Source: Bacilli bacterium
GTDB lineage: Bacteria > Bacillota_I > Bacilli_A > RF39 > UBA660
Reading direction: 5' to 3'
DNA: 64,000 nt
Assembly (NCBI GenBank): GCA_017542465.1
Contig: JAFXXB010000008.1
Span: forward strand, 17,321 to 81,320
The notes beneath the pieces are model-generated. The model ran no database searches and had not been told where the DNA came from. It saw only the letters and a program-made list of their open reading frames with translations. A program made the translations under genes and the position numbers. Positions 10,590 to 37,724 of this stretch are shown piece after piece (position 1 is the stretch's first letter; each line of letters opens with the position of its first letter).

Positions 10590-10592
10590 TTA

Positions 10593-16629: not shown

Positions 16630-19600
16630 TTATCTTCTAAATGTTGACTTTATATCTTCTAATTCGTCATTTAATTCTTTTCTCAAAGATTCTTCATCTA
16701 CATTTGTTTTATCAATATCACGCTTCATTACACTAATGAAGAATGGATATCCATCAGTTCCATATATTCCAGAACCTTCAACAAAATTATATTTACCATA
16801 TTTATCAATAAAATATGGATTACTTAATATTTCATTTAGTCTATTCTTTTCTTCATCAGTTAAAGATAAATATGTATCAGACTCATCATCATTATGATCA
16901 TGATGAATTTGAATACCTTCTTTTAAATTCATTGCAGGTACTACTTCTTTACCGTTTTCATCTGTCATACCAGCATTTAATACATCAATGAATTGCATTA
17001 TTGATTTATCATAAGTGTTTACGTTTCCTTTTTGATTTTCTAGACTATCTCCATGAACATCATCAAATGAAACATATTCATCTTCATCAACTTCTATTGG
17101 TTCGTTATTACCAAACATTTCATCATATTCTTTTGCTTCCTTCTTAGTAACATAGAAATAATCATCTTTACTATTTAATACAAATAAATGCTCTAAATTA
17201 TCAATAGTTACTTTAGGTTTTAATGATGAAGATGTAATTTTTTTATTGAATTTTTCATCTAAATAATCTCTATTAATATTTTCCTTTTTAGAAGGAGATA
17301 TTTCAGAACCATCTAGATTTTTAGCAATAATCTTACCATTTTCATAATCAAATATTAATTTTAATTCATATTGACGAGCCATCTCTTTTAATTGACTCTT
17401 TTTAATAGCTACCATGATATCTTTAATACTAAATCCACCAGCAGCAGTTGTTACTAGAGCTCCACCGGCAGTAGCAGGAGCATTAACACTAGCAAGTCCA
17501 AATGCTGTTAATAACATACCAGCAATTCCTAATCCAATTTTTTCAACTGGAGGAATTCTTCTTGCTCTAACTTTAACCATTTCTCTTAATGCTGCTTGAT
17601 CTTCTTCAGTAGTTAAATGTATTTCTCTATCATCTACTTTTTCTTCAGGATGTAATAAAGCTCTAGCCATTTTCTCATCCTCAGCAGTATCTTCATATTC
17701 TTCAGATTCTAATAAATCTTCATCATATAACTCTTCTTCTACTTCTTCATAATCTTCAAGATCATCATCATATTCTTCATATTCTGTCTCAGTAGGTTCT
17801 TCTATTGTTTGTTCTGCTTTCTCAATAGGTTCATTTAATTCTTCTTGAACAAGTTCTTCTTTAACCTCTTCTTTAACTTCTTTTTGAGGTTTTGTAGTTT
17901 TTGTTTTTCCTTTAGTTGCATCATCAATCATTCTAATAATGTCGTTCATTTCATCTTCTTCAGAAGCGTATTGAATATCGTTATTTATATAATCTTCAAG
18001 ATCATTATTCTTTTCAGATGTTTCTGGAGAAGTTATTTCATGTATATTATTAGATTCTTTTTCTTCATTATTAACTGATACAGGAACAAATTCTTCTTCA
18101 TTAATACCTTCAACATTTATATCAGTCTTTAATTCTTCTGGAGTAAGAGAAGCATTTTTTTCCTTTTCCATTTCTTCTTTAACTTCAAACAAGACATCTA
18201 CAGCTGATTTTTCAGTTGGTTCTTGAGGTTTGGTTTCAAATGCTTGTGAATATTGTTCTTCACGATTTTGAACTACCTTTTCAGGTTCGTTTGATTCAAT
18301 TTCACCTTTTTCATCATATAATGACTTTTTTTGTAATTGTTCTTCAGTTAAAATTGGTTCATCAGGATTTGTTCTTTCAACATCTTTAAAATCATCTTCA
18401 GTTAATACATCCTCATCATCTTCTATAGGAATATTCTCTGATGGAGTATCTAACTCAACGTTTAAATCATCCTCTGTAACATATTCTCTTTCATCATCAG
18501 TCGATGATGATACTTCTTCACCAAATCTTTCTTTAATTTCTTCTTCAGTTATCGCTGGTTCTTCTTTTTCTTCATATTCTTCTCTAAGAGGAACATGTAC
18601 TATTTCAGGGACTGGAATAGTTTGTTCAATGTTTTGTTGAGCTTCTACAACATCTTCTTTTAATCTAGGAGCTCTAACTGGTCTTAATTCTCTATTTAAT
18701 AATCTAGAACGTCCTTCAGAAGGAGTTTCAGTATTTAATACTTCTTCAACAGGTTCTATAGTTCTACTGATTTCAGGTAAATCACGTAAAGGAGTTTTAA
18801 ATAACTTATTACTTAATGAATATGCTGAATCATGTCTATCTTTATAGAATTTAGTGAACTCTTTACTTTCATCATCAGTTAAACCAAGTTTTCCTTCAAT
18901 TGCAGCAATATAATAGTTTCTTAATGTAGATAAACCTAAGATAATACCATTAACATATTGTTTAACATGATCTTTAATAGTTTTAATCTTTTCTGCAAAA
19001 GTTTTAGGTTTTGATTCTTCCTTAACAACTGGAGTTTCAACTTTTTCATCTACTTTATCACCAGTAGCTCTCGCACTCATGTTATTTAAGAAATCATCAA
19101 ATTTATTGTCGCCTTTTAATACAGTATTCTCTGGTTGAATAACTGGTTTAGGTTCTTCAACCTTTTCTTCCTTAACTGGTTCTACAGTTGTTGATGGTTT
19201 AGATAATCCTAAATCACTTAGGAACATTTCATATTCAGGACCTACAGGTTCATATATATCTCTAGAATAAGCATATGCAATTTGTTCATCTGTTAATCTT
19301 GGATCCCATTTAGGTTCAGTCTTAGTTTCTACTTTAATTGGATCTAATCCATGTTCTCTTAAGAACATTTCATATTCTTGTCCAACTGGTTCATATATAT
19401 CTCTAGAATAAGCATCTAAGATTTGTTCTTCTGTTAATCTTGGATCCCATCCTGGTTTTGTATTATTTGTTTTTTCAACTACAACTGGTGTAGGTTTTAC
19501 TTCAGGTACAACTGGAGCAGATTTTACTTCAGGAGCACTGAATACTTCATCATAAGTAGGATTCTCAACTGGAGTTTCTTCTACTTCTTCAACAGTATTG

Positions 19601-20133
19601 ATAATTGGAGCTTCACTTACCTCAGCTGGTTCAATACCATATGCTTGATTTATAAAATTATTTAATTCAATTTTTGCGTCATATCTTTCTTGTTGAATAG
19701 TTGGTGTTGCTTCTATTTCTTTTCTACCATTTACTAATTGATCATCAATAATTTTCCAGTCAGCAAAAGTATCAGTAAGAATAGTACGATATTGTTCTAC
19801 CATTTCTTCATTATTACTTTTATTAATGAAGTTTAAGATTCCTTCAATTCTCTTATCAAAGAATCTCTTTACTTCTTCACTAGTAACATTCTTGTCGAAT
19901 CCATAATGTTCTAACACAAAATCAGCAACAGTCATAGAATCATCATTGATAAATTCTTTTGCATCACTTAACAATTGTAAGAATTCTTCATCTTCCTCAA
20001 AATTAGGATTATAGCCTAATAAAATATCTAAAGAACGAAGTTTTGCATTTCTCTCTTCTTTTGATAATCTCTCATCATCAATTATAATCTTTCTTAATTT
20101 TTCAACAGTTTCTTGTCTCATAAAATTCGCCAC
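16630..20133 (-). CDS. large acidic protein (1167 aa), function unknown. Carries a 40-aa tandem repeat and a single Ala/Gly-rich hydrophobic segment
   Basis: Long intact ORF. Glu/Asp-rich low-complexity regions. The unit KPGWDPRLTEEQILDAYSRDIYEPVGQEYEMFLREHGLDP occurs twice (nt about 19195-19458). A hydrophobic stretch IGLGIAGMLLTAFGLASVNAPATAGGALVTTAAGG lies at about 17414-17599. Confidence 0.6.
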   Translation of the reverse strand: MANFMRQETVEKLRKIIIDDERLSKEERNAKLRSLDILLGYNPNFEEDEEFLQLLSDAKEFINDDSMTVADFVLEHYGFDKNVTSEEVKRFFDKRIEGILNFINKSNNEEMVEQYRTILTDTFADWKIIDDQLVNGRKEIEATPTIQQERYDAKIELNNFINQAYGIEPAEVSEAPIINTVEEVEETPVENPTYDEVFSAPEVKSAPVVPEVKPTPVVVEKTNNTKPGWDPRLTEEQILDAYSRDIYEPVGQEYEMFLREHGLDPIKVETKTEPKWDPRLTDEQIAYAYSRDIYEPVGPEYEMFLSDLGLSKPSTTVEPVKEEKVEEPKPVIQPENTVLKGDNKFDDFLNNMSARATGDKVDEKVETPVVKEESKPKTFAEKIKTIKDHVKQYVNGIILGLSTLRNYYIAAIEGKLGLTDDESKEFTKFYKDRHDSAYSLSNKLFKTPLRDLPEISRTIEPVEEVLNTETPSEGRSRLLNRELRPVRAPRLKEDVVEAQQNIEQTIPVPEIVHVPLREEYEEKEEPAITEEEIKERFGEEVSSSTDDEREYVTEDDLNVELDTPSENIPIEDDEDVLTEDDFKDVERTNPDEPILTEEQLQKKSLYDEKGEIESNEPEKVVQNREEQYSQAFETKPQEPTEKSAVDVLFEVKEEMEKEKNASLTPEELKTDINVEGINEEEFVPVSVNNEEKESNNIHEITSPETSEKNNDLEDYINNDIQYASEEDEMNDIIRMIDDATKGKTKTTKPQKEVKEEVKEELVQEELNEPIEKAEQTIEEPTETEYEEYDDDLEDYEEVEEELYDEDLLESEEYEDTAEDEKMARALLHPEEKVDDREIHLTTEEDQAALREMVKVRARRIPPVEKIGLGIAGMLLTAFGLASVNAPATAGGALVTTAAGGFSIKDIMVAIKKSQLKEMARQYELKLIFDYENGKIIAKNLDGSEISPSKKENINRDYLDEKFNKKITSSSLKPKVTIDNLEHLFVLNSKDDYFYVTKKEAKEYDEMFGNNEPIEVDEDEYVSFDDVHGDSLENQKGNVNTYDKSIMQFIDVLNAGMTDENGKEVVPAMNLKEGIQIHHDHNDDESDTYLSLTDEEKNRLNEILSNPYFIDKYGKYNFVEGSGIYGTDGYPFFISVMKRDIDKTNVDEESLRKELNDELEDIKSTFRR

Positions 20134-23943: not shown

Positions 23944-24798
23944 ATGAAAAAATATGTATTATTAATAGGATTATTAATTATAAGTACATTTGCATTAACA
24001 GGATGTATTAAGAAAGATAATATGGATGATATAAAGATAATTACTACAACATATCCAATTACAAATCTAGCAGAAGAAATATATGGTAATTACTCTACTG
24101 TTACATCTATATATCCAAATGGTGTTAATATTAATGAATATGAAATAACAGATAAACAAATTAAAGAATATGCTAAATCTGATTTATTCATTTATAACGG
24201 ATTAGATGTTAATGAAAAAAGAATAGCTACTAGATTATTAAATCAAAATAAAAAAATTAAACTAATTGATGCCACTCAAGGATTAACTTATTCTTCATCA
24301 TTTGAAGAACTATGGTTATCACCAGCTAATTACTTAATGATGGCTCAAAACATTAAAGTACACTTAAGTGATGAGATTAAATCAACAGTTATTAAAAGGG
24401 ATTTAGATAAGAGATATGAAAACATGAAATTAAAGATATCTAAATATGATGCTCAATTTAAAATAATTGCAGAAAATACTGATAAAAAAGATGTAATAAT
24501 AGCTAATAATTCATTAAAGTTCTTATCTAGATATGGATTTAATATTATTAGTATTGATCCATCAGAAGATAGAATAAGAACAAATACTACTCAAGCAAAA
24601 GAAAACATAAAGAACAATAAAAATAAAACAATATTTGTTATTGATAGTTCAAATGATAAAGTTAATGAAATAACTAAATCACCTACAATAGTAAAATCAA
24701 TGACTATACTATCAGAAGATGATATTAAAAATAATGAAACATATGAAACAATGATGAATAAATTTATAGATAATTTAAGAACTGAGGTGTATTCATAA
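23944..24798 (+). CDS. lipoprotein, function unknown
   Basis: Signal peptide with lipobox (FALTGC). 284 aa. Confidence 0.55.
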   Translation: MKKYVLLIGLLIISTFALTGCIKKDNMDDIKIITTTYPITNLAEEIYGNYSTVTSIYPNGVNINEYEITDKQIKEYAKSDLFIYNGLDVNEKRIATRLLNQNKKIKLIDATQGLTYSSSFEELWLSPANYLMMAQNIKVHLSDEIKSTVIKRDLDKRYENMKLKISKYDAQFKIIAENTDKKDVIIANNSLKFLSRYGFNIISIDPSEDRIRTNTTQAKENIKNNKNKTIFVIDSSNDKVNEITKSPTIVKSMTILSEDDIKNNETYETMMNKFIDNLRTEVYS

Positions 24799-25715
24799 TG
24801 AAAGATTTACTTATATCACATATTGATTTAGATGGAGTATCTCCTAACGTATTATTAAGCTTAACTAATAGAAAATTTGAATATAAGAATATAGAATTAT
24901 CAGATGTAGATAAAACTTTTGATGAATACTTTAAAAAAGATTTAAAGAAATATGAAAACATATATATAGTTGATTTAACATTAACAGAACATGCACATGA
25001 ATTAATTCAGCAATCTAAATTAAATAATATTCATGTATTTGATCATCATGCATCACATGAATTTGCAGTTAATTATGATTACACAGATATTAGAGTTGAA
25101 ATTAACGGAAAGAAAACATGTGGTACTGAATTATTCTATTTATATTTTAAGAAAAAATATAAAGAACTAAATAAACCTAATATAGAAGATTATGTAGATT
25201 TAGTTACTCAATTAGATACATATACATTTAAAGATGAAACTAAAGCTCAAAACTTAAATACTCTACATGATTTATTAGGTCATCAAGAATTTATTAAAAC
25301 TATTACAAGAAGATTAAAGAAAAATAATAAAACATTTGAGTTTACTCAATTTGAAAAGAAACTATTCAAGATTCAAAGAAATAAAATAGATAGATATATT
25401 CTAAATAAAGAATCTGAAATGAAAAAGTTTATTATTGATGGACATAAATGTGGTGTTGTATTTGCTGAAACAAATAAATCAGAATTAGGTAATTATTTAT
25501 CTGGTAAGAATCCTGATTTAGATTTAATAGTATTATGTGATGCTTCATCAAGATTTAGTTTAAGAACTAAAAAAGATGATGTTGATTTAAATGTATTTGC
25601 TTCTCACTACTCTGGTGGTGGACATAAAAAAGCTGCTGGTATTATGTTTAGTGATGAAAACAGAAAAAAAATAATAGAAAACTTTTTTAAAGAAGTAAAA
25701 GAAGATACTAACTAG
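24798..25715 (+). CDS. nrnA: DHH/DHHA1-family phosphoesterase (NrnA-like nanoRNase / pAp phosphatase)
   Basis: 305 aa. DHH motif (FDHHASHE) and DHHA1 GGGH motif (YSGGGHKKAAG). Start overlaps the upstream stop (ATGA). Confidence 0.65.
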   Translation: MKDLLISHIDLDGVSPNVLLSLTNRKFEYKNIELSDVDKTFDEYFKKDLKKYENIYIVDLTLTEHAHELIQQSKLNNIHVFDHHASHEFAVNYDYTDIRVEINGKKTCGTELFYLYFKKKYKELNKPNIEDYVDLVTQLDTYTFKDETKAQNLNTLHDLLGHQEFIKTITRRLKKNNKTFEFTQFEKKLFKIQRNKIDRYILNKESEMKKFIIDGHKCGVVFAETNKSELGNYLSGKNPDLDLIVLCDASSRFSLRTKKDDVDLNVFASHYSGGGHKKAAGIMFSDENRKKIIENFFKEVKEDTN

Positions 25716-25722
25716 TATCTTT
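25700..25722 (+). terminator. rho-independent terminator after the nrnA-like gene (stem AAGATACTA / TAGTATCTT plus T-run)
   Basis: Inverted repeat followed by TTTTTT. Confidence 0.45.
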
Positions 25723-25730
25723 TTTATTTA

Positions 25731-25759
25731 TTGACTATAACTAATTATTTAGATATAAT
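25731..25759 (+). promoter_or_regulatory. sigma-70-type promoter for tRNA-Ser (TTGACT-17nt-TATAAT)
   Basis: -35 TTGACT at 25731-25736 and -10 TATAAT at 25754-25759, 12 nt upstream of the tRNA 5' end. Confidence 0.45.
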
Positions 25760-25771
25760 TATGTTTGTTAT

Positions 25772-25864
25772 GCAGCAGTACTCAAGAGGTCGAAGAGGGA
25801 TCCCTGCTAAGGATTTAGGCGGGCGAATGTTCGCGCGGAGGTTCAAATCCTCTCTGCTGCGCCA
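25772..25864 (+). tRNA. tRNA-Ser (anticodon GCU), class II tRNA with long variable arm, CCA encoded
   Basis: 7-bp acceptor stem GCAGCAG/CUGCUGC, discriminator G, 3' CCA. T-arm GGAGG-TTCAAAT-CCTCT. Anticodon stem GATCC/GGATT with loop CT-GCT-AA (U33, anticodon GCT, A37). Long variable stem-loop of about 21 nt. 93 nt in total. Confidence 0.9.
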
Positions 25865-25878
25865 TTAATTGAATAAAA

Positions 25879-25907
25879 AAGAAGATATTAATTATCTTCT
25901 TTTTTTG
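25879..25907. terminator. bidirectional rho-independent terminator (AAGAAGATA-TTAAT-TATCTTCTT, with an A-run 5' and a T-run 3')
   Basis: Perfect 9-bp stem flanked by AAAAAA and TTTTTTT. Shared by tRNA-Ser (+) and the convergent Cys-rich gene (-). Confidence 0.6.
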
Positions 25908-26091
25908 TTTCACAATTACATTCTTTGCATGCACATTCTTTTTCTTCAGAACAATTACATTCTTTGTTCTCTTCACATCCACATGTACATTCTTCATTGC
26001 ACTTACATTCACCTTCACAAGTACATTCTTTACCTTCTTGGCATCCACATGTGCATTCTTCAGTACAATTACACTTCTTTACTTCTTCCAT
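25888..26091 (-). CDS. small Cys-rich, Glu-rich protein (67 aa, 18 Cys); metallothionein-like candidate metal-binding protein
   Basis: AGGAGG RBS 8 nt upstream of ATG (MEEVKK...). Eight repeats of (K/E)EC-x-C, e.g. EECTCGC, KECTC, GECKC. The listed ORF start (MNRRLIM) is probably a false upstream extension. Confidence 0.55.
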   Translation of the reverse strand: MEEVKKCNCTEECTCGCQEGKECTCEGECKCNEECTCGCEENKECNCSEEKECACKECNCETKKEDN

Positions 26092-26101
26092 GATTAACCT
26101 C

Positions 26102-26650
26102 CTATTCATATATTCTTTCTAAATTAATATTTATTTTAGTTCCTGTTGATCTTATATTATCTGTATATTGATAATAATCATCACCAACATTAACTTTATT
26201 ATATTCATATATTTCTATCTTATCTAGGTCTAATCCTTCAATTTTATACATTCTAGGGTATTTCTTTACAACACTTATTAATAAATCTTCTAATGTATCA
26301 AATACATTATTATCAATTAGCCAAGATGATTCCATTAATACATATTTATTATCTTGTTCAACTACACAGAATGTATGTCTAGCAATCTTATTAGGTACAT
26401 CATATATAATATTATATTTTTTATATGATATGTTTTCTTTATCTAATAAGTAAGCTATTACTTCAGTTTGTTCATAACAAGTACCAACTTTATATTTTAA
26501 AGTATCATCAACACTCATTAATCTATAATTATCTAAATAATAATCTCTCTTTGCATTTTTATGAACAACTCCATCTGATGTAACAAAACCATAATGAATT
26601 TGTTTTATTTCATTTAATATATTTAATAACTTTTCATTCATATTAATCAC
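26102..26650 (-). CDS. hypothetical protein with transglutaminase/NAT-like Cys-His motifs (182 aa)
   Basis: Candidate nucleophile in GTCYEQTEVIAYLL and downstream IARHTFCVVE...ESSW. Resembles the papain-like Cys-His-Asp arrangement of transglutaminase-like proteins and arylamine N-acetyltransferases. Motif-level only. Confidence 0.35.
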   Translation of the reverse strand: MINMNEKLLNILNEIKQIHYGFVTSDGVVHKNAKRDYYLDNYRLMSVDDTLKYKVGTCYEQTEVIAYLLDKENISYKKYNIIYDVPNKIARHTFCVVEQDNKYVLMESSWLIDNNVFDTLEDLLISVVKKYPRMYKIEGLDLDKIEIYEYNKVNVGDDYYQYTDNIRSTGTKININLERIYE

Positions 26651-26670
26651 ATAATTATTATAACATAAAA

Positions 26671-26694
26671 AAGAAGATATTATTTTATCTTCTT
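26671..26694. terminator. rho-independent terminator (AAGAAGATA-loop-TATCTTCTT) after the giant gene
   Basis: 9-bp stem with a 6-nt loop, flanked by an A-run and a T-run. Confidence 0.5.
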
Positions 26695-29600
26695 TTATTC
26701 ATTAGGAATATTATTTATACCTATTTTATCTTTAGCATCTACCTTTTCACTTCTAAAGTTTACATTGTTGGCTTCTGCTATTTTATTTATATCTTGATAT
26801 TCTATTTCTCCTAATGGTAATACTAGTTTCTTGATATCTTCTTCACTTAATAATGACATCTTTTCACTTTCATCAAATACTTGGTTTACTCCTGGTATTA
26901 TCTTATTTCCTTCTTTTCTTGCATATACTCCACATGAGATGTGTCCTATATGTAAGTCTTTTGATACCATCTTTAATGTATCTATTAATACATATTTATT
27001 GTATACCTTATTTAAATCTATTGTTGGATAACTTGTTATTGTCTTATTTATATTATCCTTACTTACTTGAGTTATATCTTGTTCATATAAATCTATTCCA
27101 AGCTTATCACATACTTGTCTTGCATATGTTAATTGATCTAGATTCTTTCCATTATTGATGAATAATGCTGAAACTTTATAATTCTTTTCTTGTAGTAATT
27201 TAGCTGCTACTGCACTTCCTACACTTCCAGAGATTCCAATTAAGACTTTCTTTCTTAACAAGATTGGTAATAACCAGATTAATAATCCTATTATTCCTAA
27301 TCCTCCAATTACTGCTAGAACAATCCACCATGGGAATGGTTTTTTAACATGTATTTCAATGTCATCACCCTTAACCTCTTCTGTGGTTGTTCTTCTTCTT
27401 GTTGTTTCAGTAGTTTCTTCTGTTGTTGTTTCCTCTGTAGTTTCTTCCGTTGGTTTTGTTGTATCTGTTGGAGTTGAAGTTTTTCTAGGTGGTCGAGTTC
27501 CAGTTTCATTAGATGTACTTGAACTAGTTGTAGTTGTAGGTATTTCATCAAAGTATAACTTAAATACTGTTCCATCTTCTACTTCAGGATCTATTTCAAC
27601 TACTCCTCCATGAGAAGGTAATTGATTATCATTCATGAATACTCTTTTTAATGAGAATCCATCATATAAAGTATGAGCATTTTCAAAGTATTGTACATCT
27701 ACCTCTATCTTTTCATTAGATAATATTTGTACTTCTTTAGTCTTTTCAAATGAGTCCACTTTAGCAGTATTTTTATATAATTCTACCGTATATTTAATTG
27801 TTTTAACTTGATTATCATCAATAGATGAAGCAATATTTAATACACCATAGTTATGAGCAGTCATACCTATATTAATATCTTGATTAGTCCAAACAGATAA
27901 ATCTTCTTTTGTCTTAATTTTAGGATTATCAGTTAATGCAACTTTATTATCTAAATTATTAACTTGATATTCATTTGTTTTATAAGCAAAAGTTGGTTGA
28001 ATTAATGATTTAAAGAATCTAACAATTGCTTTACCAGCATTTGCAATAATATTTGATAATGAATTATCAGTAGATATAACCTGACCAGTAACTTTAGTAT
28101 ATGAATTACCAGTTATCGCTGCGGCACCTCTAATAATTGGTGAATTATTATTACATTTTCCTATTTCACCAATAATAAGAACACCTTGATTATCGATTAC
28201 AATACCATTTGCATTTTCCATTGAAGATGTATCATTTGGCTCTATTTCACCATTTGGATCATCAATAATAGTTAATGTACCTTGATTTATAATTCCTTTT
28301 TCAAGTCCATCAAAATTTAATGTATGACCTTCTAAAGCAAGTGTAATATTCACTGAACTTGGAATAGTTACAGTGCTTTCAACTAATACATCATTTCCGA
28401 CTTTGATTGTTCCAGTTTTATTTGTTTGTTCACTTATTACATCAATAACATCATTTAAAGAAGCAAAATATTGATTATTATACTCAAATGAATTATCTAA
28501 ATGAGACTCAACAGCTAAATAACTCTTATTTCCAGCTATAATAACATGATAATGTTCAGGAACATTATTAGCTAAACCACTTATAGGTGTATTTGGTGAT
28601 TCAAATACTCCATCATAGAAGTTAAACGTTCCATCTCCTTTATATAATCCAACATTTTTACCATAGAAATATGGTTTAGTTGTGCTTACTACTCCATCAT
28701 TAACTCCTATAGTCAACGTTGAAGATGCTGATTGTTTTATAGCATATATGTTATTTGCATCGCTAACAGATGAATTTGCATTTACTACTACATCATTTAA
28801 TAGCGTTACATTACTATTTCCTGATACTTCTATAAGGGCAGCATATGTGTTTAAATCACCGTTGATATTTGCTTTTTTAACTAACAATTGAGCGTAATCA
28901 CTAGTATTAATACCTGATACAGAACCATAAGTACATGTTAAATCTATATTAATATCATCAACAACAGTCTTTGAATTATATAAATCTAATGCTACACCAC
29001 CATTAGTAGTTGTCGTTGTATAATTCATGTGTTTAATATAAACGTTACTATATCCTTCAGCACGAATACCAACATTTTTATTAGTGTAAGTTATATTTTC
29101 AATATTTAAATCAGATGATTGACTTACTGTTATACCTCTTCCAACTGGGGATCCTGTTTGTTTAATTTCTCCATTCTTAACAAGAACTTCACTATTAAGA
29201 GTATAAATAAAGGAATCACTACCAGTATGGGTTACATCCATATCATTAATAACAATACTTCCTCTATGCAATAAACTCTTTTTATTATTTCCATCAATGA
29301 TTTGAACATCATTCAAATATGCTGAACCATTACAAACAACATGTAAATAATATTGACTTCCACCAGTTAAACTTGTTGTAAACTCTCCATATCTATCTAT
29401 TACATCAGTTGTATACACAGGAGTAGCTAATGTTGTAGGAGGTTCTACACTATCGGTAATATAGAATTTATAAGTTGTTTTGGCTAAAGAATTAAATAAT
29501 ACTTTTATTTCTAATGTATTGGAATAATCTCTCAAATCAATAGGTATATAATATGATGTCCTACTATAGCTATCAATTACACCATTTGTAATACTTATAT

Positions 29601-32600
29601 CATATCCATTGGTCTTAGTTGGTATGTCAGGATCTGCTATTGAATATACCATAGGTGTGGCAGTTCCACCTTTAAATACCGGATTGTTAAATTCAACGTA
29701 ACCACCCACATTATAAACAGCCTTACCAAATGCATCATCATATTTATCAGCTCTATCATTAACTGATAATTCAACACCATTTAGATATAATTTAGCATCT
29801 CTTTTATTTGTTATTAATCTAGACTTATCATAACCATTTGTACTAAGAGACAAATTATTTCCTAAAGTCATAGTATTCTCATTACTTAATATAGGATTAG
29901 AATTTAGTCCCAATGTTACATTCATTGAACCATTATTAATATCTAATATACCTTTATTAGTTATATATTTATCATCTTTTGATGATATAGTTTTTGAGTT
30001 TAAATCTAAAATAATATTCTTATTATTATTTATAGTTACACTTTCATATAGTGAAAAATCATTTAGTATTTTTAAATTACATACTTGATTATCAGGGCAA
30101 GAATTAATAGCATCTTGTAACTTATTAAATTCTATATTATCATCTACATTTAATACATTATTACCTTTAGTTAATGTCCAAGTAATATATGATTCTTCAC
30201 TTCCTTTATTAAGGATATAACCATTAGGAATATTATTAAGACCATAATCATATATCTTTTTACCTTTTAGTATTCCATCATAGAAATCAAATCTCGTATT
30301 CATTCCACGTAATGTTTCTACTTGACCAAATATTAATGGAGAAGTTGTACTTACATGACCATCCTCATCTGTATCATCATTAGTTATTGTTATATTAGCA
30401 TTAACATCATCACTTACATAGATACCATAAACATTTGAAATAACTGATGTATTAATAATTTTTTGTTCATGTTCATTATCAACATAAATACCATAAGCTC
30501 TTTCATTTGGTCCAGTTACATTTATAGTTGAATTAGAAATTACCGCTTTAGAATTATCATCAATAAACACACCACGATTATATGAATCCCAATGAGACGT
30601 AGATAAAGTAATATTTGTATTATTAATATTAGCTACTGCTCTATCATGTAAATATATACCATTAATTCTATCAAATAATCCCTCACCATTTACAATACTT
30701 ATATTAAAACCATCAGTATTAACAATACCATTAGCAGCTTCTATACCATTTGGGTAATAATTACCTTTGTTATTATATATTTCACCACCAAAGCCATTAA
30801 ATACAGCATAACTTTCGACTAATACACTTGTGTTTTTATTTAAAATCTTTCCACCTGTCATATTAACCACAGCAGAATAACCTTCGCGAATTCCAGTTCC
30901 ACCTGTTGAATTTGTTGAATTTGTAATAATTCCACCTTGATAATCTATAATGCTATTTTCACTAAATAGAATCTCACCATCACCAGCATCCTTATAATCA
31001 ACATTCTTAACTACCACATTACCATGATTAATTAAATCAATTATTTCACCATTATATTCAATATTAATATTTATAATATGATGATCACTTCCATATGTAG
31101 ATCCAAAGTGTAAATAGTATTTTTCTCCACCTTGAATAGTTGTTGAATATGATTGAACACTATATGATTTATTACTATCATTATCATTTACAAAAGGAGT
31201 ATCAGCTGATGTAGGTGCCGTTGAAGTTTTAGTAATCCAAGCCTTAATTTTATAACCACCTAGTGATATATTTGAGAAGTTTAATTTAACCTCACCATTA
31301 TAATCAGTTAAATCTAAAGGTAAGCATCCAGATGATCCCCAATAATCTAAATTAATTACACCATTTTTATAAGTAATATCACCTGAATTATAAACAAAAT
31401 TATCCATTTCAACTGGTTTAGCCATTGTATAAATACCACTTGTTGCACCCGATATAGTTTTAGATTTCATTATTGCACCATCAATTTCAACATAACCACC
31501 TATGTTTTTAATTAATGTTCCATCATTTCTTACTTTATTTATATTAGATTTACCACCATTATTTATTAATGTTGCATTATTAATCAAATATAGTTTACCA
31601 GTTTGATTATTTGTAATTAAAGTAGATTTAATAACTTCATAGAAATTAAGTGTTGCACCATCTATCGTTAAAACACCATTATTTTCTATAATAGTTGCAA
31701 AATCAGATGCAGATTCACTATCTAGTAATCCATTCTTAAATGTTATAATACCATTGTTTAAAATATTATATGAATCACTAGTTGTAATTTTCAGATTATT
31801 TAAATCAAAACTAATATTCTTTGTATTTTTAATTTCCAATTGATATCCTAATGAAGTTTGATATAAAAGTTTCAAATTACATAATGTATCTTTTGGACAA
31901 TCATCAACTGCTTTTTGTATTTTTGAATATTTTACACCAGTATCAATATTTTCAACTAAATCCAACTTTTGTAGAACAACAGTATTTAAGTTTCCATCAG
32001 TACCATAAACTAAATCATAATCTTCAGGTCTATCTGATACACCACCATATATTTGAGTTTCACCTTTGATAATACCATCGTAGAAATTAAAGGTTCCGGC
32101 CTTATGATAAATACCATAAGTAGTACCAGATACAACTGGTGTTGTTTGACTTACATCATCATCATTATTTGATAAAGTTATAGTAGAATCACTGTTTTCG
32201 TAAGTTATAATTCCATATACATTCGTAGTACCATTTGCAATTATAGATGATGAATTAACATTTAAATACATAGCTTCAGTTAAACGAACGCCGTATAGAT
32301 TTTTTGAATTTGAACTACCTGTAATATTAATTGATGTATTATTTAAATTAACATAACGAGGAACATATGGATAACCATATTCTGTATCTATACCATATAA
32401 ACTTCCACCGCCACTTAAATTAATACTTCCACCATTCATCGTTAATTTATTTCTATTAGGTCTTACATATATACCTCTAGAATTACTATTAGAATTTGAT
32501 GTTATATTAATATCATCAATATCAACTATTGATTCATCCATATATAATCCAATAAAATCATTTTGTTTAGTATCATCAACAATATCTAAACCATTAATAT

Positions 32601-35600
32601 AACCATATGAACCTGATGAAAATTTTATTGGTTGGTCTTTGTTATATATCAAACCACCTGATGTATATAGTCTTGATCCATGATTAAGTAATATACCTGT
32701 TCCATATCTACTTGTTGTACTATTCTTAATAATACCATCATTGAATGTAAATTTGCCATTATTTAGAATAATTGATGGATTAGTTCCCTTTTCAATCAAG
32801 GTTAAATCATTGGCTACGATATTACCTACATTAAATAAGCTTTTTTCATTATTATTTTGAGTAATAATTATATCTCTAAATACTAATTGACCACTCTCAA
32901 AAACAAAATAATAATTCTTTCCACCCATTACAGTTGTAGATGCAAAACCAATTTCACTCTTATTATTTGAATAGAATTCAGTTAAATTATCTAAATCTTC
33001 ACCTATATAAAATTTAAAACTATCATCAGATAAAGTATTATAATCAATTTTTATCTCAACATTTCCAGAATAATCAGATAAATCAATTGGTAAATAACCA
33101 TGTCCAGTATAATATGTTTTTACAATGCCATTCTCATATGTATAATTATCACCAGATAATTTAGTGAATTTAGGAGGTATTGCTATACCATATATAGCGT
33201 TTGCACTTGCATTTTTACTACTCTTTGAGTAAACATTCATTGTTCCACCATTAATTTCTGAATATCCACCCTCATTATATAAAATATAACCATCTATATT
33301 CCCACCATCAAAGTCATTAATTTGATCATATGTTCCGTCATTTATATATAATTTACCAGTATAATTGTTTTTAAACACTCTAAGGAATCTATAAGTTCCC
33401 GTAGACATTTTCGTATTTTCTCCATTAACGGTCATAATATTATTATTTTCAAATAAAGCTTGCATACTATTAGCTGAAATATTAGATACATCTATATTAT
33501 TAACAGTTACATTACCATTATTTAATAATCCGCTTGTTCTATTAAATTCAAATATTATTTTACAATCACTTATATTTAATGTGTTATTATTAATAATTTG
33601 ATGAGATTTAATTAAACCTTTATTTTCACTATTATCAACTATATTTAATACTCCATTATTAATCAAACCAGCACCTAAATATAAGTTTTTACCATTTAAA
33701 TCAATAGTTATATTTTGACTGTTCTTAATTGTATTTGAATAGTTAGCCATTTCATATAGATTATCAGCTAATACTCTTAATGTCCCAGAATCACCAATAC
33801 TAGTTAATGCATTTCCTATAGAAGAATACATAATTCCTGATTCAACATGTAAAACATTATTTTGTTTTTCCTTAGTTTGTTTAATGAATTTATAATTATC
33901 ATCACTGCCATTCAATAAATAGTATGATTCTTCAATATCATTAATCAAAGTATATGATGCTTCATTTTTACCATATATAATTCCATCATAAAAATTAAAC
34001 ATAGCGGTTGGAGAATAGACACCATATCTTTCCGATTTAATATATCCGGCTTTATCATTATAAACACCATTTTGAGTTCCATAATATATAGTTCCAGAAC
34101 CTGTATTATATATACCATCTGTAACAAATTTAACATGATCAGTAGATTGATTAATAGAAACATCATTAAGATAAATAGGACCGCTACCAACATTATATAT
34201 TCCTCTAATAAGTGATAAAGGTGTTGGTTCAGAATCAAAGAATGAAGCTGCTTGTCCTGTTTCATTTATTGTAACTTGATTTAGTATCAATGTTGATTCA
34301 TTACTCTTTTTTATAGCAGAATATGGATTTATAGGAATCCAACGAGTTTTTGTAGTAATATTTGAATTCATTATGACATTATTAAAAGTTGTTAAACCTG
34401 TATTATCAATATTAATTTGTTGATATGCATTATGATATAATTCTTTTTCATAATTAAATGTAGAATCTGATACAGTTACTGGAAATCTAGATGTATTATT
34501 AAAATCTCCCGTAAACGTAACATGACTTGCGTTAAATGTATAATTATTTTCTACATTATTAATTATTCCACCATTAACATTTATATAAGCCAAATCTTTA
34601 ATGCCATAAGTAGCATCATATACATCTTCATTAGTTATTTGATCAATAGTACCATCTTCTATATTAATTTTTGATTTATAATTATATACCTCATCAATAG
34701 TTCCACCATTAATATAAATTAATCCTTGATTTCTAGCACCAACTCTAGCATTAAAAGTTCCGTTATTAATAGTTATTTTAGCATTATCATTATTGACTAC
34801 AGATTGAGAACAAGACAAAGTTCCACCATTGATTACGATATTGTCAGAAGCAGATGTATTTGATAAACAATAATATGCATTTGATAATTCTCCATCATTT
34901 ATAGTTAGATGACTAATGCTTGTTTCATATGGTATTAATTCAACTTCCTTAACGGTAAATGTGTTTTCACCTGGGCGTGCATCTTTTGTTAAAGGATAAT
35001 ATATATGTAGATATATCTTTCCATCTCTGACTATTCCATCTCTTTCAGCTATTTGATCTCCTCTAGTTTCCCATAAATCAGAACCACCAGTAACAGGATA
35101 GTCACTTGATGAAATATTAACTCGAGCAACTGCATGAACAGGAGCTACGTGATTATATGTTATTCTTGCTTTTACTTTAGTTCCATTTGGTATACCATTT
35201 GTATCTAATTCAACTAATGCATACGCATTTTTTCCTGGATCTAAACTATTATTTGATACTAAATAACCATCTTCATTTACATTAAAACCATAATCAAAAT
35301 CATATTGGGTTTTATTATAAAATGAAGTATATGTTTTTTTGGCACTTTCAACTAGATTATTAGTGTAATAATCATCATTCATTATAGAATAACCAGATGA
35401 ATCATAATAATATGTACAATGAGCTCCTTGAATTAAGCCACCATTTACAGTCACAGATCCACCATTATTTTCTAATGCACCTCGACATCCAGTATTTCCT
35501 CCTCTAGTTGAAATAATGGATCCTCCATTTATTGTGATATTTGCATCATGTTCATTATAAATAACTTGTGTAATCTCTGTTTGATATACACCATTATCTA

Positions 35601-37665
35601 TAGTTAAATCTGCGCCCGTTTTATTATATATAGCATATGAATAAACATTATACTCTTTAAAAAATACAGTTTCACCAGTTGAATCTCTTAACTCAAGTTT
35701 TCCAGAATTTGTAATTAATGGTTGTTTTACTGAATTGACAAGTTTATAACTATTCATATCAAGTAATATATTCTTAGTATTATCAATTTCAATTGTGTGA
35801 TCTTTTGTTAAATCTTTAACAACATCTATTTCAATTTGAGTAGTTGAATCACCTTTATATTTATTTGCAGCTTCAATTGCATCTTCAAGTAGTGTATATC
35901 TAGTTTTACCGATTAAAGCTTCAATATTAGATACTAATTCTAATGACATTTTATATCCATTTTCATCAGCAAGAGTACTTGGATCATATAAAGGAGGAGT
36001 ATCATTTACAGCTCCATCAACTGCTACTCTACCAATTATAATACCATCATAATAATTAAATTCTCCATGTTCATCGACAAAAACTCCGCCATCCTTACCA
36101 TAAATATAAGGAGAATTATGATCAGGATACTCAATATGTGCCATATCAGTTGAATTATCTTGTCCTACATTTAATATACCATTATTGTCAATTTTAATTG
36201 CATAATTATTATCACTAGTTACTTTACCAGTACTACTTCCGTGATTATACTTACTTATATCAAAAGTTGTATCACTAAAATAATCATTTAGATTTAATTT
36301 ATCATCAATTATCTTTAATTTCGCTCCATCATTAATCTTAATAGTAGAATCATATTTTGTCGAATGAACATTATAACCATTTAAATCCAATGTTAGGTTA
36401 ACACTTTCTACATCTAAATGTTGATTAGTTATGTCATATTCTATTTGAGCAATTATCTCATCGTCACTTGTAATTCCATTATTAATTAAATCATCATGAA
36501 ATGCTTTTAACGAATAATACTCTCTACCTATTAATTCCGCTTTTGGTGAAGATAAAATTAATATAACTGGTTCTAATTCTATAGGATCTATTTCAGTAAT
36601 ATTTCTTTGTTCAATTGAATAGTTTCCTGCATTATCATATGCATGAAAATAATATGTAGCATTTTCATTTACAGTTACAGAATATGTATTATCACCTGTA
36701 GCAGCAATATAATCATCATCGGATATAACTGACGAAATTGAAAAAGCATATTTACTAATTCCGGATTTACCATTTTCCAAAGTAGCATTTTGATCAACAA
36801 TAGAATAAGAAATTGTAGCTTCATCATGAGTAGCATTTAAAGTGACACCATTGATAATTATACTAGGTTTTAATTTATCAATATTTGTAATATGAAGAAC
36901 AGATATCTTAGAATATCCATCTGTTTTATATTTAGATTTGGCATATAAATAACCATTAGTACTTACCTTTAAATAATTATTCTTATCATATACGACAAAA
37001 TTCTTGGAACTTAATTCTTCATCGCTTAATTCAGTAGTTGAATAATAATATGATATTTCAACATCCTCATTAGCTCTAAGTTTAATTTTATCCTCATTAT
37101 CAGTATATAAAAAAACTATTTTATCATTATCAGATAAAGAAACCTCTTTATTATCACTATCATATAATTTATCTATAAAAGCATGTAAATTATCTTGATA
37201 ATCTATTTTTATAATAGCCTTGCTATATGAAGATTTTAAGCCTTCTCTTTTTTCTGTTGGTATAATAGTAATATCATAAGTGTTACCTTTTTCAATGCCA
37301 TCTAATTTGACTATTACACCATCACCATCTAACACAATTTTATTATTAGGAGCATCAATTATTTCATGCGTATTTACATTCAAATATTGAATAGTTATTT
37401 CTGATGGTGCAGATATTTTGACTTCATTTCCATCAATATTCTCTTTAGATTCATGATCTAAGTACTCTAGAATAAAAGATACACTTGTAGGATTATCTTC
37501 TCCATCAACAAAAGCAGATATGTTATTCATACCTTCATCTAGAGAATAAGATTTATCAAAAAGTTTACTACCCAAAAAAGATAATAGTATTACTATTAAT
37601 AATATAGGTATGACTGTAAAAAGTAATTTTTTAGGTATATTCTTCTTGTCTTTCATTCTAGTCAC
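26695..37665 (-). CDS. giant modular cell-surface protein (3656 aa): signal peptide/anchor, five beta-helix-like modules, Thr-rich stalk, C-terminal TM helix, cytoplasmic degenerate MnmA-like domain
   Basis: Uninterrupted 10.97-kb ORF. N-terminal KK + hydrophobic signal. Asn/Gly/Thr/Tyr-rich segments with recurrent NxG(T/S)(L/I) rungs typical of right-handed beta-helices. The motif F(N/D)(F/Y)YDG(I/V) recurs five times, at nt about 36043-36060, 33978-33995, 32075-32092, 30278-30295 and 28608-28625. TT(E)-rich linker at about 27360-27530. TM WWIVLAVIGGLGIIGLLIWLL at about 27262-27335. C-terminal 215 aa resemble the MnmA N-terminal domain. Confidence 0.8.
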   Translation of the reverse strand: MTRMKDKKNIPKKLLFTVIPILLIVILLSFLGSKLFDKSYSLDEGMNNISAFVDGEDNPTSVSFILEYLDHESKENIDGNEVKISAPSEITIQYLNVNTHEIIDAPNNKIVLDGDGVIVKLDGIEKGNTYDITIIPTEKREGLKSSYSKAIIKIDYQDNLHAFIDKLYDSDNKEVSLSDNDKIVFLYTDNEDKIKLRANEDVEISYYYSTTELSDEELSSKNFVVYDKNNYLKVSTNGYLYAKSKYKTDGYSKISVLHITNIDKLKPSIIINGVTLNATHDEATISYSIVDQNATLENGKSGISKYAFSISSVISDDDYIAATGDNTYSVTVNENATYYFHAYDNAGNYSIEQRNITEIDPIELEPVILILSSPKAELIGREYYSLKAFHDDLINNGITSDDEIIAQIEYDITNQHLDVESVNLTLDLNGYNVHSTKYDSTIKINDGAKLKIIDDKLNLNDYFSDTTFDISKYNHGSSTGKVTSDNNYAIKIDNNGILNVGQDNSTDMAHIEYPDHNSPYIYGKDGGVFVDEHGEFNYYDGIIIGRVAVDGAVNDTPPLYDPSTLADENGYKMSLELVSNIEALIGKTRYTLLEDAIEAANKYKGDSTTQIEIDVVKDLTKDHTIEIDNTKNILLDMNSYKLVNSVKQPLITNSGKLELRDSTGETVFFKEYNVYSYAIYNKTGADLTIDNGVYQTEITQVIYNEHDANITINGGSIISTRGGNTGCRGALENNGGSVTVNGGLIQGAHCTYYYDSSGYSIMNDDYYTNNLVESAKKTYTSFYNKTQYDFDYGFNVNEDGYLVSNNSLDPGKNAYALVELDTNGIPNGTKVKARITYNHVAPVHAVARVNISSSDYPVTGGSDLWETRGDQIAERDGIVRDGKIYLHIYYPLTKDARPGENTFTVKEVELIPYETSISHLTINDGELSNAYYCLSNTSASDNIVINGGTLSCSQSVVNNDNAKITINNGTFNARVGARNQGLIYINGGTIDEVYNYKSKINIEDGTIDQITNEDVYDATYGIKDLAYINVNGGIINNVENNYTFNASHVTFTGDFNNTSRFPVTVSDSTFNYEKELYHNAYQQINIDNTGLTTFNNVIMNSNITTKTRWIPINPYSAIKKSNESTLILNQVTINETGQAASFFDSEPTPLSLIRGIYNVGSGPIYLNDVSINQSTDHVKFVTDGIYNTGSGTIYYGTQNGVYNDKAGYIKSERYGVYSPTAMFNFYDGIIYGKNEASYTLINDIEESYYLLNGSDDNYKFIKQTKEKQNNVLHVESGIMYSSIGNALTSIGDSGTLRVLADNLYEMANYSNTIKNSQNITIDLNGKNLYLGAGLINNGVLNIVDNSENKGLIKSHQIINNNTLNISDCKIIFEFNRTSGLLNNGNVTVNNIDVSNISANSMQALFENNNIMTVNGENTKMSTGTYRFLRVFKNNYTGKLYINDGTYDQINDFDGGNIDGYILYNEGGYSEINGGTMNVYSKSSKNASANAIYGIAIPPKFTKLSGDNYTYENGIVKTYYTGHGYLPIDLSDYSGNVEIKIDYNTLSDDSFKFYIGEDLDNLTEFYSNNKSEIGFASTTVMGGKNYYFVFESGQLVFRDIIITQNNNEKSLFNVGNIVANDLTLIEKGTNPSIILNNGKFTFNDGIIKNSTTSRYGTGILLNHGSRLYTSGGLIYNKDQPIKFSSGSYGYINGLDIVDDTKQNDFIGLYMDESIVDIDDINITSNSNSNSRGIYVRPNRNKLTMNGGSINLSGGGSLYGIDTEYGYPYVPRYVNLNNTSINITGSSNSKNLYGVRLTEAMYLNVNSSSIIANGTTNVYGIITYENSDSTITLSNNDDDVSQTTPVVSGTTYGIYHKAGTFNFYDGIIKGETQIYGGVSDRPEDYDLVYGTDGNLNTVVLQKLDLVENIDTGVKYSKIQKAVDDCPKDTLCNLKLLYQTSLGYQLEIKNTKNISFDLNNLKITTSDSYNILNNGIITFKNGLLDSESASDFATIIENNGVLTIDGATLNFYEVIKSTLITNNQTGKLYLINNATLINNGGKSNINKVRNDGTLIKNIGGYVEIDGAIMKSKTISGATSGIYTMAKPVEMDNFVYNSGDITYKNGVINLDYWGSSGCLPLDLTDYNGEVKLNFSNISLGGYKIKAWITKTSTAPTSADTPFVNDNDSNKSYSVQSYSTTIQGGEKYYLHFGSTYGSDHHIININIEYNGEIIDLINHGNVVVKNVDYKDAGDGEILFSENSIIDYQGGIITNSTNSTGGTGIREGYSAVVNMTGGKILNKNTSVLVESYAVFNGFGGEIYNNKGNYYPNGIEAANGIVNTDGFNISIVNGEGLFDRINGIYLHDRAVANINNTNITLSTSHWDSYNRGVFIDDNSKAVISNSTINVTGPNERAYGIYVDNEHEQKIINTSVISNVYGIYVSDDVNANITITNDDTDEDGHVSTTSPLIFGQVETLRGMNTRFDFYDGILKGKKIYDYGLNNIPNGYILNKGSEESYITWTLTKGNNVLNVDDNIEFNKLQDAINSCPDNQVCNLKILNDFSLYESVTINNNKNIILDLNSKTISSKDDKYITNKGILDINNGSMNVTLGLNSNPILSNENTMTLGNNLSLSTNGYDKSRLITNKRDAKLYLNGVELSVNDRADKYDDAFGKAVYNVGGYVEFNNPVFKGGTATPMVYSIADPDIPTKTNGYDISITNGVIDSYSRTSYYIPIDLRDYSNTLEIKVLFNSLAKTTYKFYITDSVEPPTTLATPVYTTDVIDRYGEFTTSLTGGSQYYLHVVCNGSAYLNDVQIIDGNNKKSLLHRGSIVINDMDVTHTGSDSFIYTLNSEVLVKNGEIKQTGSPVGRGITVSQSSDLNIENITYTNKNVGIRAEGYSNVYIKHMNYTTTTTNGGVALDLYNSKTVVDDINIDLTCTYGSVSGINTSDYAQLLVKKANINGDLNTYAALIEVSGNSNVTLLNDVVVNANSSVSDANNIYAIKQSASSTLTIGVNDGVVSTTKPYFYGKNVGLYKGDGTFNFYDGVFESPNTPISGLANNVPEHYHVIIAGNKSYLAVESHLDNSFEYNNQYFASLNDVIDVISEQTNKTGTIKVGNDVLVESTVTIPSSVNITLALEGHTLNFDGLEKGIINQGTLTIIDDPNGEIEPNDTSSMENANGIVIDNQGVLIIGEIGKCNNNSPIIRGAAAITGNSYTKVTGQVISTDNSLSNIIANAGKAIVRFFKSLIQPTFAYKTNEYQVNNLDNKVALTDNPKIKTKEDLSVWTNQDINIGMTAHNYGVLNIASSIDDNQVKTIKYTVELYKNTAKVDSFEKTKEVQILSNEKIEVDVQYFENAHTLYDGFSLKRVFMNDNQLPSHGGVVEIDPEVEDGTVFKLYFDEIPTTTTSSSTSNETGTRPPRKTSTPTDTTKPTEETTEETTTEETTETTRRRTTTEEVKGDDIEIHVKKPFPWWIVLAVIGGLGIIGLLIWLLPILLRKKVLIGISGSVGSAVAAKLLQEKNYKVSALFINNGKNLDQLTYARQVCDKLGIDLYEQDITQVSKDNINKTITSYPTIDLNKVYNKYVLIDTLKMVSKDLHIGHISCGVYARKEGNKIIPGVNQVFDESEKMSLLSEEDIKKLVLPLGEIEYQDINKIAEANNVNFRSEKVDAKDKIGINNIPNE

Positions 37666-37724
37666 CTACTATATAAATAATAACATTTATGCAATAGTTT
37701 TTTCAATATTTTACATTCAATTTA

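Follow-up and report, generated by a model that had tools for sequence, protein, structure and literature searches.

A predicted bitopic giant surface protein with beta-helix modules and a MnmA-derived tail in a Bacilli metagenome-assembled genome

The window considered here is a 64,000 nt stretch of contig JAFXXB010000008.1 (forward-strand positions 17,321–81,320) from the metagenome-assembled genome (MAG) of an uncultured, low-GC gut organism labelled Bacilli bacterium. A giant gene, located at 26695–37656 on the minus strand of the window, is a real surface-protein gene and belongs to a family of modular giant proteins that carries no name. From its sequence the product is predicted to be bitopic, with an ectodomain, one membrane helix and a cytoplasmic domain derived from the tRNA-modifying enzyme MnmA. 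On balance the protein is probably a membrane-anchored giant surface fibre, in which beta-helix rods carrying inserts like carbohydrate-binding modules (CBMs) would act as a multivalent glycan-binding adhesin; the MnmA-derived tail is inactivated.

A single open reading frame (ORF) of 3656 codons, with zero internal stops, occupies 26695–37665 on the minus strand, just as the initial annotation of this DNA had listed it. The GTG listed as its first codon sits within a Shine-Dalgarno sequence, AGGTGA (37662–37667, minus strand, read from the sequence), which lies 5 nt 5′ of an ATG at 37656. The true start is therefore the ATG at 37656, at which the NCBI and ENA gene calls also begin, and the protein comprises 3653 aa followed by a TAA stop. 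Residue numbers below are those of the 3656-codon ORF, in which the true Met is residue 4. The protein is deposited at NCBI as MBR6072845.1 (IKP76_00810), ‘hypothetical protein [Bacilli bacterium]’.

Five assembled contigs, ENA ERZ28018973 k141_1800858 among them, carry a gene for this very 3653-aa sequence, and thus the gene is not assembly noise. The initial annotation had argued as much and had proposed looking for breaks of the ORF in independent assemblies, where it proved intact. It is extremely improbable that the gene was produced by mis-assembly, has decayed to a pseudogene or encodes a prophage tail fibre. The source is indeed a MAG, repetitive genes can mis-assemble, and phage tailspikes are also among the fold matches. 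However, the internal repeats are approximately 29 % identical, too divergent for collapse or chimera, and the product is identical on all five contigs. Likewise, the flanks are of housekeeping type (htpG, smc, rnc and the dnaK operon), PHROGs gives no structural match and matches just the MnmA-like tail (QueC-like), and a module scan of the 2.9 million viral contigs of IMG/VR returned no relative of the family.

Beta-helix modules, jelly-roll inserts and their family

The protein contains exactly five copies of the motif F[ND][FY]YDG[IV], at aa 536, 1223, 1859, 2459 and 3014 (nt 36060, 33999, 32091, 30291 and 28626), against approximately 1e-4 chance occurrences estimated from the residue composition of the protein itself. 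These positions lie within 5–14 nt of those first reported. The motif had been described as a strictly recurring module end; this holds for the seven-residue core, but the flanking TYGIY and IIKG are not strictly kept. BLASTP between segments cut at the motifs identifies M3, M4 and M5 as full-length paralogs (29–30 % identity over ~600 aa, E 1e-36 to 1e-44), with M2 matching them solely at its two ends. The five modules of roughly equal size initially proposed are instead four full modules of 687, 636, 600 and 555 aa, a short module of 175 aa and a sixth, partial module.

All features of the ectodomain are on the minus strand. A Lys-rich start precedes an N-terminal hydrophobic segment at aa 14–32 (LLFTVIPILLIVILLSFLG; 37570–37626), which by sequence is either a signal peptide or a signal anchor. 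A conserved N-terminal region follows (aa 33–370; 36556–37569); it is not built as a beta-helix module, homologs share 19 % of its positions without change, and no Pfam match was found in it. Module M1 (aa 371–545; 36031–36555) consists of a cap and a few rungs, closes with the end motif FNYYDGI (36040–36060) and has no insert. M2 (aa 546–1232; 33970–36030) ends in FNFYDGI at 33979–33999 and represents a divergent module type that is kept at the same position in homologs. M3 (aa 1233–1868; 32062–33969), M4 (aa 1869–2468; 30262–32061) and M5 (aa 2469–3023; 28597–30261) end in FNFYDGI (32071–32091), FDFYDGI (30271–30291) and FNFYDGV (28606–28626), respectively. The Cys-pair or Asp-rich start that had been ascribed to every module is present as CPxxxxCNLK in M4 (CPKDTLCNLK) and M5 (CPDNQVCNLK), but not in the others. 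Beyond M5 lies T1 (aa 3024–3170; 28156–28596), the start of a sixth beta-helix without an end motif. Of the extracellular segments, T1 is conserved best: 25 % of its positions are invariant, and it has matches in 29 motif-bearing ORFs of related loci. It is followed by T2, a conserved membrane-proximal region (aa 3171–3380; 27526–28155), and by a Thr/Glu/Pro-rich stalk (27334–27525) ending in the invariant juxtamembrane motif TTEEVKGD. A stretch related to T2 occurs several times in one ORF of a relative (L023).

The beta-helix and jelly-roll folds anticipated from the sequence both appear in structural models and in the fold matches. An AlphaFold2 model of M3, computed from an alignment of the four module copies of the window only, is all-beta (pLDDT 78.6, pTM 0.80) and presents the stacked three-strand rungs of a right-handed parallel beta-helix of the pectin-lyase-like fold. 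No Pfam Beta_helix, NosD, Pectate_lyase or similar family matches the protein at E ≤ 1. Modelled separately with 17 homologous copies, the insert is predicted to be a beta-sandwich jelly-roll (pLDDT 93.1, pTM 0.86). Its position is aa 1474–1614 in M3 (32824–33246; signature YLPIDLSDYSG ... GGKNYYF), aa 2070–2215 in M4 (31021–31458; insert HMM E 7e-41) and aa 2666–2802 in M5 (29260–29670; E 9e-43). The insert HMM is significant in these three modules only. A divergent jelly-roll-type insert at the corresponding place of M2 (~aa 795–896; 34978–35283) is not significant in the direct HMM search, yet is homologous to the M3–M5 insert profile-to-profile (hhalign 97.9 %, E 3.5e-13). Thus, of the five capped modules, each of which had been credited with a PIDLxDY insert, four contain one and M1 does not. 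On the models, the four long modules each hold a CBM-type jelly-roll domain between rungs; no Pfam CBM family matches the protein.

In the fold comparisons, the best-ranked structures are those of non-enzymatic beta-helix adhesins and of carbohydrate-binding modules. In an alignment of six homologs, only 6–7 % of the positions of M3–M5 are invariant, and these are mainly G, N and Y. Acidic residues are invariant only at the P(I/L)DL Asp of every insert, namely D1528, D2118 and D2710, at the YDG Asp and at a handful of scattered sites, and no conserved cluster of charged residues is apparent in the beta-helix cores of the same alignment. These observations bear on whether the protein could be a multi-catalytic polysaccharide depolymerase, a cell-bound degradative machine in which each beta-helix is a lyase or hydrolase and each insert a substrate-targeting CBM. 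The inserts are CBM-like, as a depolymerase would have them; given binding proteins as the two best structural neighbours and cores lacking conserved charged clusters, it is nonetheless quite unlikely. The same three features, the binding-protein neighbours, the CBM-like inserts and the cores without conserved charged clusters, favour an adhesin. The initial suggestion of an adhesin or glycan-binding protein is therefore the most plausible function, as far as fold can indicate it.

Comparison with homologs dates the repeats. For every module of the window protein, the best match is its positional counterpart in P0006, P0007 and P0010–P0012 and not a sister module of the same chain, and the cap motifs of these homologs are located at nearly identical positions. 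The internal amplification is thus old, in agreement with the first interpretation.

Nothing in Pfam, NCBIfam or PHROGs matches the ectodomain (~3440 aa), even at E ≤ 1, and no publication containing the cap motif was found; the absence of a recognisable named family had already been remarked. An exhaustive HMM search with a four-module profile retrieved 1257 cluster representatives (50 % identity) at E ≤ 1e-3; of these, 574 reach E ≤ 1e-10 and 140 reach E ≤ 1e-30. Almost all have lengths of 1000–6400 aa, and the members with a recorded source derive from low-GC gut MAGs. The best 150 relatives contain hundreds of copies of a generalised cap, (F/L/V/I)(N/K)(F/Y)YDG. The family module can be described as an N-cap (...NI.LDLNG...), beta-helix rungs and this C-cap, and the window protein has all three. 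Four relatives were compared with Pfam, and gave at most a sub-threshold Beta_helix match, seen in the remote homolog P0013 at 17.2 bits versus a cut-off of 25.9. The jelly-roll insert is restricted to the closest subfamily.

Gut MAGs commonly contain large adhesin-like genes that lack annotation. Related genomes, which it had been proposed at the outset to search, were covered by scanning the GTDB species representatives; this returned 42 loci, all in MAGs of 24–32 % GC, and the ORFs at all 42 carry the cap motif in a looser form. The loci are mostly labelled as gut, from humans (Hadza), rabbits, ruminants and other animals, under the names Clostridia, Bacilli, Tenericutes, Erysipelotrichaceae, Candidatus Coprovivens and Clostridium sp. 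CAG:440. Family ORFs there range from 458 to >6700 aa and are often in tandem. Two or three such giant genes stand in tandem on one contig at L001, L005, L006, L008, L015, L021 and L023, which suggests local family expansion. In other assemblies, the nearest full-length homologs (P0007, P0010, P0011 and P0012) terminate with NPKTG followed by a hydrophobic stretch and a basic tail. A C-terminal anchor is absent in many more distant members, and most family members of the related loci have none. In P0007 (aa 1–170) and P0009 (aa ~490–700) a Gly/Ser/Tyr-rich insertion (GGYGGYS...GGGAGWYGGG...) stands just before the first short beta-helix module; it is absent from the window protein.

Several of these family traits could also fit a structural envelope or coat protein, whose rod arrays would form a protective or spacing layer round a wall-reduced or wall-less cell, with ligand binding secondary. 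The protein is very large and stiff, several tandem copies are found in many genomes, the window protein has a membrane anchor instead of a wall anchor, and some source MAGs are labelled Tenericutes or Erysipelotrichaceae. However, no S-layer, SLH or self-assembly domain was detected with Pfam or NCBIfam, the CBM-type inserts suggest ligand binding, and most relatives at the related loci lack any C-terminal anchor. Such a role is improbable.

The membrane helix and the MnmA-derived tail

The stalk leads to a membrane helix at aa 3446–3470 (WWIVLAVIGGLGIIGLLIWLLPILL; 27256–27330, minus strand), which is followed by RKK and is 85 % identical to that of a paralog in the same MAG. A Thr/Glu-rich stalk and a single C-terminal transmembrane segment had been expected. 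Both the stalk and the helix are present, but the helix is not C-terminal, as 186 residues lie beyond it. Neither does the protein have an end of the sortase type (LPXTG/NPXTG, hydrophobic segment, short basic tail): the motif is absent, as had been noted for LPxTG, and the chain past the helix is long.

These 186 residues (aa 3471–3656; 26698–27255, minus strand) form a cytoplasmic domain that aligns with the N-terminal PP-loop (HUP) domain of MnmA from the first residue of that domain. The match to PF03054 has an E value of 2e-13 (50.9 bits versus a cut-off of 20.6) and that to the Escherichia coli MnmA structure, 2der_A, an E value of 2.5e-15. The PP-loop SGGVDS is changed to SGSVGS in the window protein and its paralog and to GGGISS in P0002, a homolog from another organism. 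The first catalytic Cys (the equivalent of E. coli Cys102) is a Tyr, and the chain stops before the region of the second (Cys199). The middle and C-terminal MnmA domains (PF20259 and PF20258) were not found in the window protein, and NCBIfam equivalog models score the tail at 34–60 bits versus cut-offs of 237–680; for some of these models the figures are 50–60 bits versus 237–284. Given the lost PP-loop residues, Cys and domains, the tail is not an active MnmA. Its alignment marks it as a descendant of the MnmA N-terminal domain that is without the residues required for catalysis. Three candidates for further MnmA-related sequence were set aside. The ORF at 26102–26650, downstream of the giant gene, is not the rest of MnmA (no Pfam match, unrelated sequence and a terminator-like hairpin between). 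The sufS-like gene at 54751–55959 does not mark a locus of yrvO–mnmA type; it is part of a sufS–sufU pair with no mnmA alongside. A canonical MnmA match, P0003, comes from an unrelated sample and organism and is uninformative on this genome.

The tail is not an artefact, as the same junction is present in three further settings. Contig L044, from another sample and 95 % identical in nucleotide sequence, is continuous from the membrane helix into the MnmA-like domain. The paralog of the same MAG, P0006 (3570 aa, IKP76_00650, partial), shares the architecture and is cut within the tail by the contig end. P0162 (IKP76_00200; contig L046, 1–444) overlaps P0006 in the tail and completes it at the end point of the window protein, so that both paralogs terminate at ...KIG(I/N)NNIP(N/S)E. 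Lastly, P0002 on contig L043 (48 % aa identity) covers the end of T2, the stalk, the membrane helix and a longer MnmA remnant. This remnant retains part of the middle domain in frame, and is followed by a 59-aa ORF matching the MnmA C-terminal domain.

Downstream of the giant gene, L044 and the window differ. In L044 (compared over 929–1059) a DHH-family gene begins within ~20 nt of the stop of the giant gene, a place at which the window has ~1 kb (compared over 25715–26695). This intervening segment comprises a 182-aa ORF, a Cys-rich ORF and a tRNA-Ser(GCT), and the DHH fragment of L044 is only 78 % identical to that of the window at the protein level. The difference is either an indel or recombination polymorphism or the product of a chimeric low-coverage contig.

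Contig L043 and the paralog locus L046 share their downstream genes, which encode a 626/627-aa protein, PfkB and Smr. Together with the later MnmA domains kept in L043, this points to that locus, beside a once-complete mnmA, as the place of the fusion. The fusion thus probably arose where the giant gene adjoined the native mnmA. The tail would then have decayed to its N-domain, and the fused gene would have been duplicated, giving rise to the copy in the window.

The rate of change along the chain is uneven. Compared with its paralog, the window protein is 58 % identical over the N-terminal region, 30–37 % over M2–M5, 46 % over T1 and 56 % over T2; the membrane helix reaches 85 % and the tail 67 %. 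TTEEVKGD and much of the helix (GLGxIGLLIWLxPxLLRK) are invariant across all three lineages. Between the tails of the window and L044 there are 12 synonymous and 4 non-synonymous substitutions (dN/dS 0.077; binomial p 3e-6 against neutrality). The tail, with its high identity and low dN/dS, therefore behaves as a constrained domain, and the beta-helix modules evolve fast.

Against this, the tail could be a translated but functionless relic: a deletion or stop loss would have fused the giant gene to mnmA, and only the helix would matter, as an anchor. Every catalytic hallmark is lost, L043 displays stepwise decay, its C-terminal domain having been frameshifted and reduced to the 59-aa ORF, and the window lineage is truncated to the N-domain. 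Additionally, dN/dS reaches 0.41–0.56 in distant comparisons, and no such tail was found at the 42 related loci or in a scan of JGI metagenomes. However, at a genomic GC content of 26 %, the frame is still open over ~186 codons in four separate sequences, the most divergent at 48 % identity. The ratio between close strains is low, conservation is far above that of the extracellular modules, and both paralogs end at one point. A relic is accordingly doubtful, without being far-fetched.

Genomic setting

Other signals around the giant gene are consistent with an independent unit. A promoter-like site, TTGAAA and a TG-extended TATTAT 18 nt apart (37677–37706, minus strand; a consensus match only, 10/12 plus TG before the -10 hexamer), is positioned just downstream of the htpG terminator hairpin. 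Right after the TAA is a terminator-like hairpin, read directly from the sequence (26667–26694, minus strand), in which AAGAAGATA, the loop AAATAA and TATCTTCTT are followed by TTTT. Its stem is a perfect 9 bp and leads into the T run; with just two G-C pairs in the stem, it was not flagged by the terminator scan. Given the hairpin and T run directly 3′ of the stop, the giant gene looks monocistronic, a unit of its own amid housekeeping genes.

The surrounding stretch of the 26 %-GC chromosome is of housekeeping type. To one side are located, in order, lepA, nrdD, dut, dnaJ, two pepF-like genes, dnaK, grpE, hrcA, a 1167-aa ORF, smc, rnc, znuA, the DHH gene, tRNA-Ser, a Cys-rich small ORF and a 182-aa ORF, which adjoins the giant gene. 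On the opposite side are htpG, a CAP-domain gene, a gene for an HTH regulator and more genes. Annotation of the 64-kb window revealed no sortase, secretion-accessory, glycosyltransferase or phage genes, and an Rfam search of it gave no match. A synteny search of the window neighbours against the 42 related loci found no common context; the giant genes occupy differing neighbourhoods.

Several neighbours are of separate interest. A 73-aa ORF at 25888–26109 (minus strand), with its own AGGAGG-type ribosome-binding site, is made up nearly entirely of CxC/CxxC-type repeats plus Glu and Lys (MEEVKKCNCTEECTCGCQEGKECTCEGECKCNEECTCGCEENKECNCSEEKECACKECNCETKKEDN); it is metallothionein-like in appearance and lies near znuA. 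The tandem pair of oligoendopeptidase F-like (M3) genes at 8835–12389 (minus strand) is located between dnaK and dnaJ, and thus interrupts the usual hrcA–grpE–dnaK–dnaJ order. The 1167-aa ORF (16630–20133, minus strand), between the hrcA–grpE–dnaK cluster and smc, has no Pfam family at E ≤ 0.001. Likewise, a 458-aa ORF between the sufS–sufU pair and recD2 (52887–54263, minus strand) has no Pfam match. A second surface-type protein, of 1924 aa (56095–61869, minus strand), contains six Listeria-Bacteroides repeats (Flg_new) and two DUF6273 stretches, and is unrelated to the module family of the giant gene. GC skew is negative in every 2-kb window except 24001–26000 and nearly all genes are on the minus strand, which, over positions 1–64000, fits a single replichore with strong gene co-orientation.

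Proposed function and comparison with known systems

As a membrane-anchored glycan-binding fibre, the protein might work as follows. The Sec-type N-terminal hydrophobic segment would start export, placing ~3400 residues outside the cell. The beta-helices would serve as rigid spacers, and the rods would present up to four fast-evolving jelly-roll domains that may bind glycans of host mucus, diet or other microbes. The partial sixth helix, the membrane-proximal region and the Thr/Glu-rich stalk lead to the one membrane helix. In the window lineage, the NPKTG sortase signal of the closest homologs would have been replaced by this helix and the MnmA-derived domain, the latter possibly kept by selection because it anchors the chain in the cytoplasm, mediates oligomerisation or binds a partner.

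Several points weigh against this account. The M3 model was built on an alignment of just four sequences. The selection on the tail is read from 16 substitutions in one pair, and in the distant tail pairs, at dN/dS 0.41–0.56, dS is near saturation. Gene conversion could account for the high identity of the paralogs in the membrane helix and tail. L044 is a contig of 1.5x coverage whose first 248 nt are unlike the window, and it supports the helix–tail junction only, not the ectodomain. Additionally, the lack of a sortase extends over the whole 64 kb.

A bolder version, which is rather unlikely, holds that the MnmA-derived tail is an exapted pseudoenzyme that, along with the unusually well conserved juxtamembrane segment and membrane helix, couples the glycan-binding fibre to an intracellular partner, that its origin consumed the native mnmA locus, and that the whole represents a new, very large adhesin family of uncultured gut Bacillota. 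Coupling might then serve assembly, oligomerisation or signalling through nucleotide or RNA binding. A literature search on MnmA pseudoenzymes found no report.

The features that set the protein apart are the module signature, the nested CBM-like inserts and, most of all, the conserved MnmA-derived tail in place of a sortase signal, which are undescribed; giant beta-helix adhesins as such are already known. The module definition (N-cap, rungs, optional CBM-like insert and FNFYDG cap) would annotate thousands of ‘hypothetical’ giant genes, and would hint at how uncultured bacteria with small genomes attach to glycans or partners. The exchange of a sortase signal for a membrane helix and an inactivated, conserved MnmA domain would be an unusual exaptation of an enzyme domain, with datable intermediates. 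The fused tail also raises the question of whether these organisms still make 2-thiouridine in tRNA.

Among known beta-helix adhesins, PfbA of Streptococcus pneumoniae (PDB 3zpp and 4mr0) has a single helix (target chains of 421 and 446 residues) and is wall-anchored by LPXTG. Unlike the window protein it lacks both a nested jelly-roll insert and the FNFYDG cap; identity is 12 % and there is no HMM-level relationship. Further beta-helix passengers compared are Vag8 (7akv), pertactin, UpaB, Hap, HMW1, EtpA and the giant Fap2 (9qe7). Adhesins of the autotransporter and two-partner-secretion types are Gram-negative proteins, exported via an outer-membrane beta-barrel or a TpsB partner. The window protein, in contrast to autotransporters, has no barrel domain (Pfam, NCBIfam), a Bacillota host, a membrane-helix anchor and a helix interrupted by CBM-like domains.

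The jelly-roll comparanda for the insert are CBM22, CBM6, CBM35, CBM61, the porphyran-binding CBM 8xmz and MAM domains. CBMs are appended to a catalytic domain, whereas the insert sits inside a beta-helix. It belongs to no CBM family of Pfam, and its signature, (Y)xP(I/L)DLxxY ... GGxxYY(L/F)H, is its own.

At the C-terminal end, the closest homologs (P0007, P0010, P0011 and P0012) resemble surface proteins of the sortase B type with NPKTG, such as IsdC of Bacillus anthracis. NPKTG is the motif recognised by the sortase B (SrtB) of B. anthracis (PMC11987632). The window protein lacks NPKTG and continues from its helix into a folded cytoplasmic domain, and thus cannot undergo sortase-type processing. 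The counterpart of that domain is MnmA (TrmU), the tRNA 2-thiouridine(34) synthase (PDB 2der, 2hma and 9hlv), whose N-terminal domain is homologous to the tail; unlike MnmA, the tail is fixed to the membrane and follows an ectodomain of 3400 residues.

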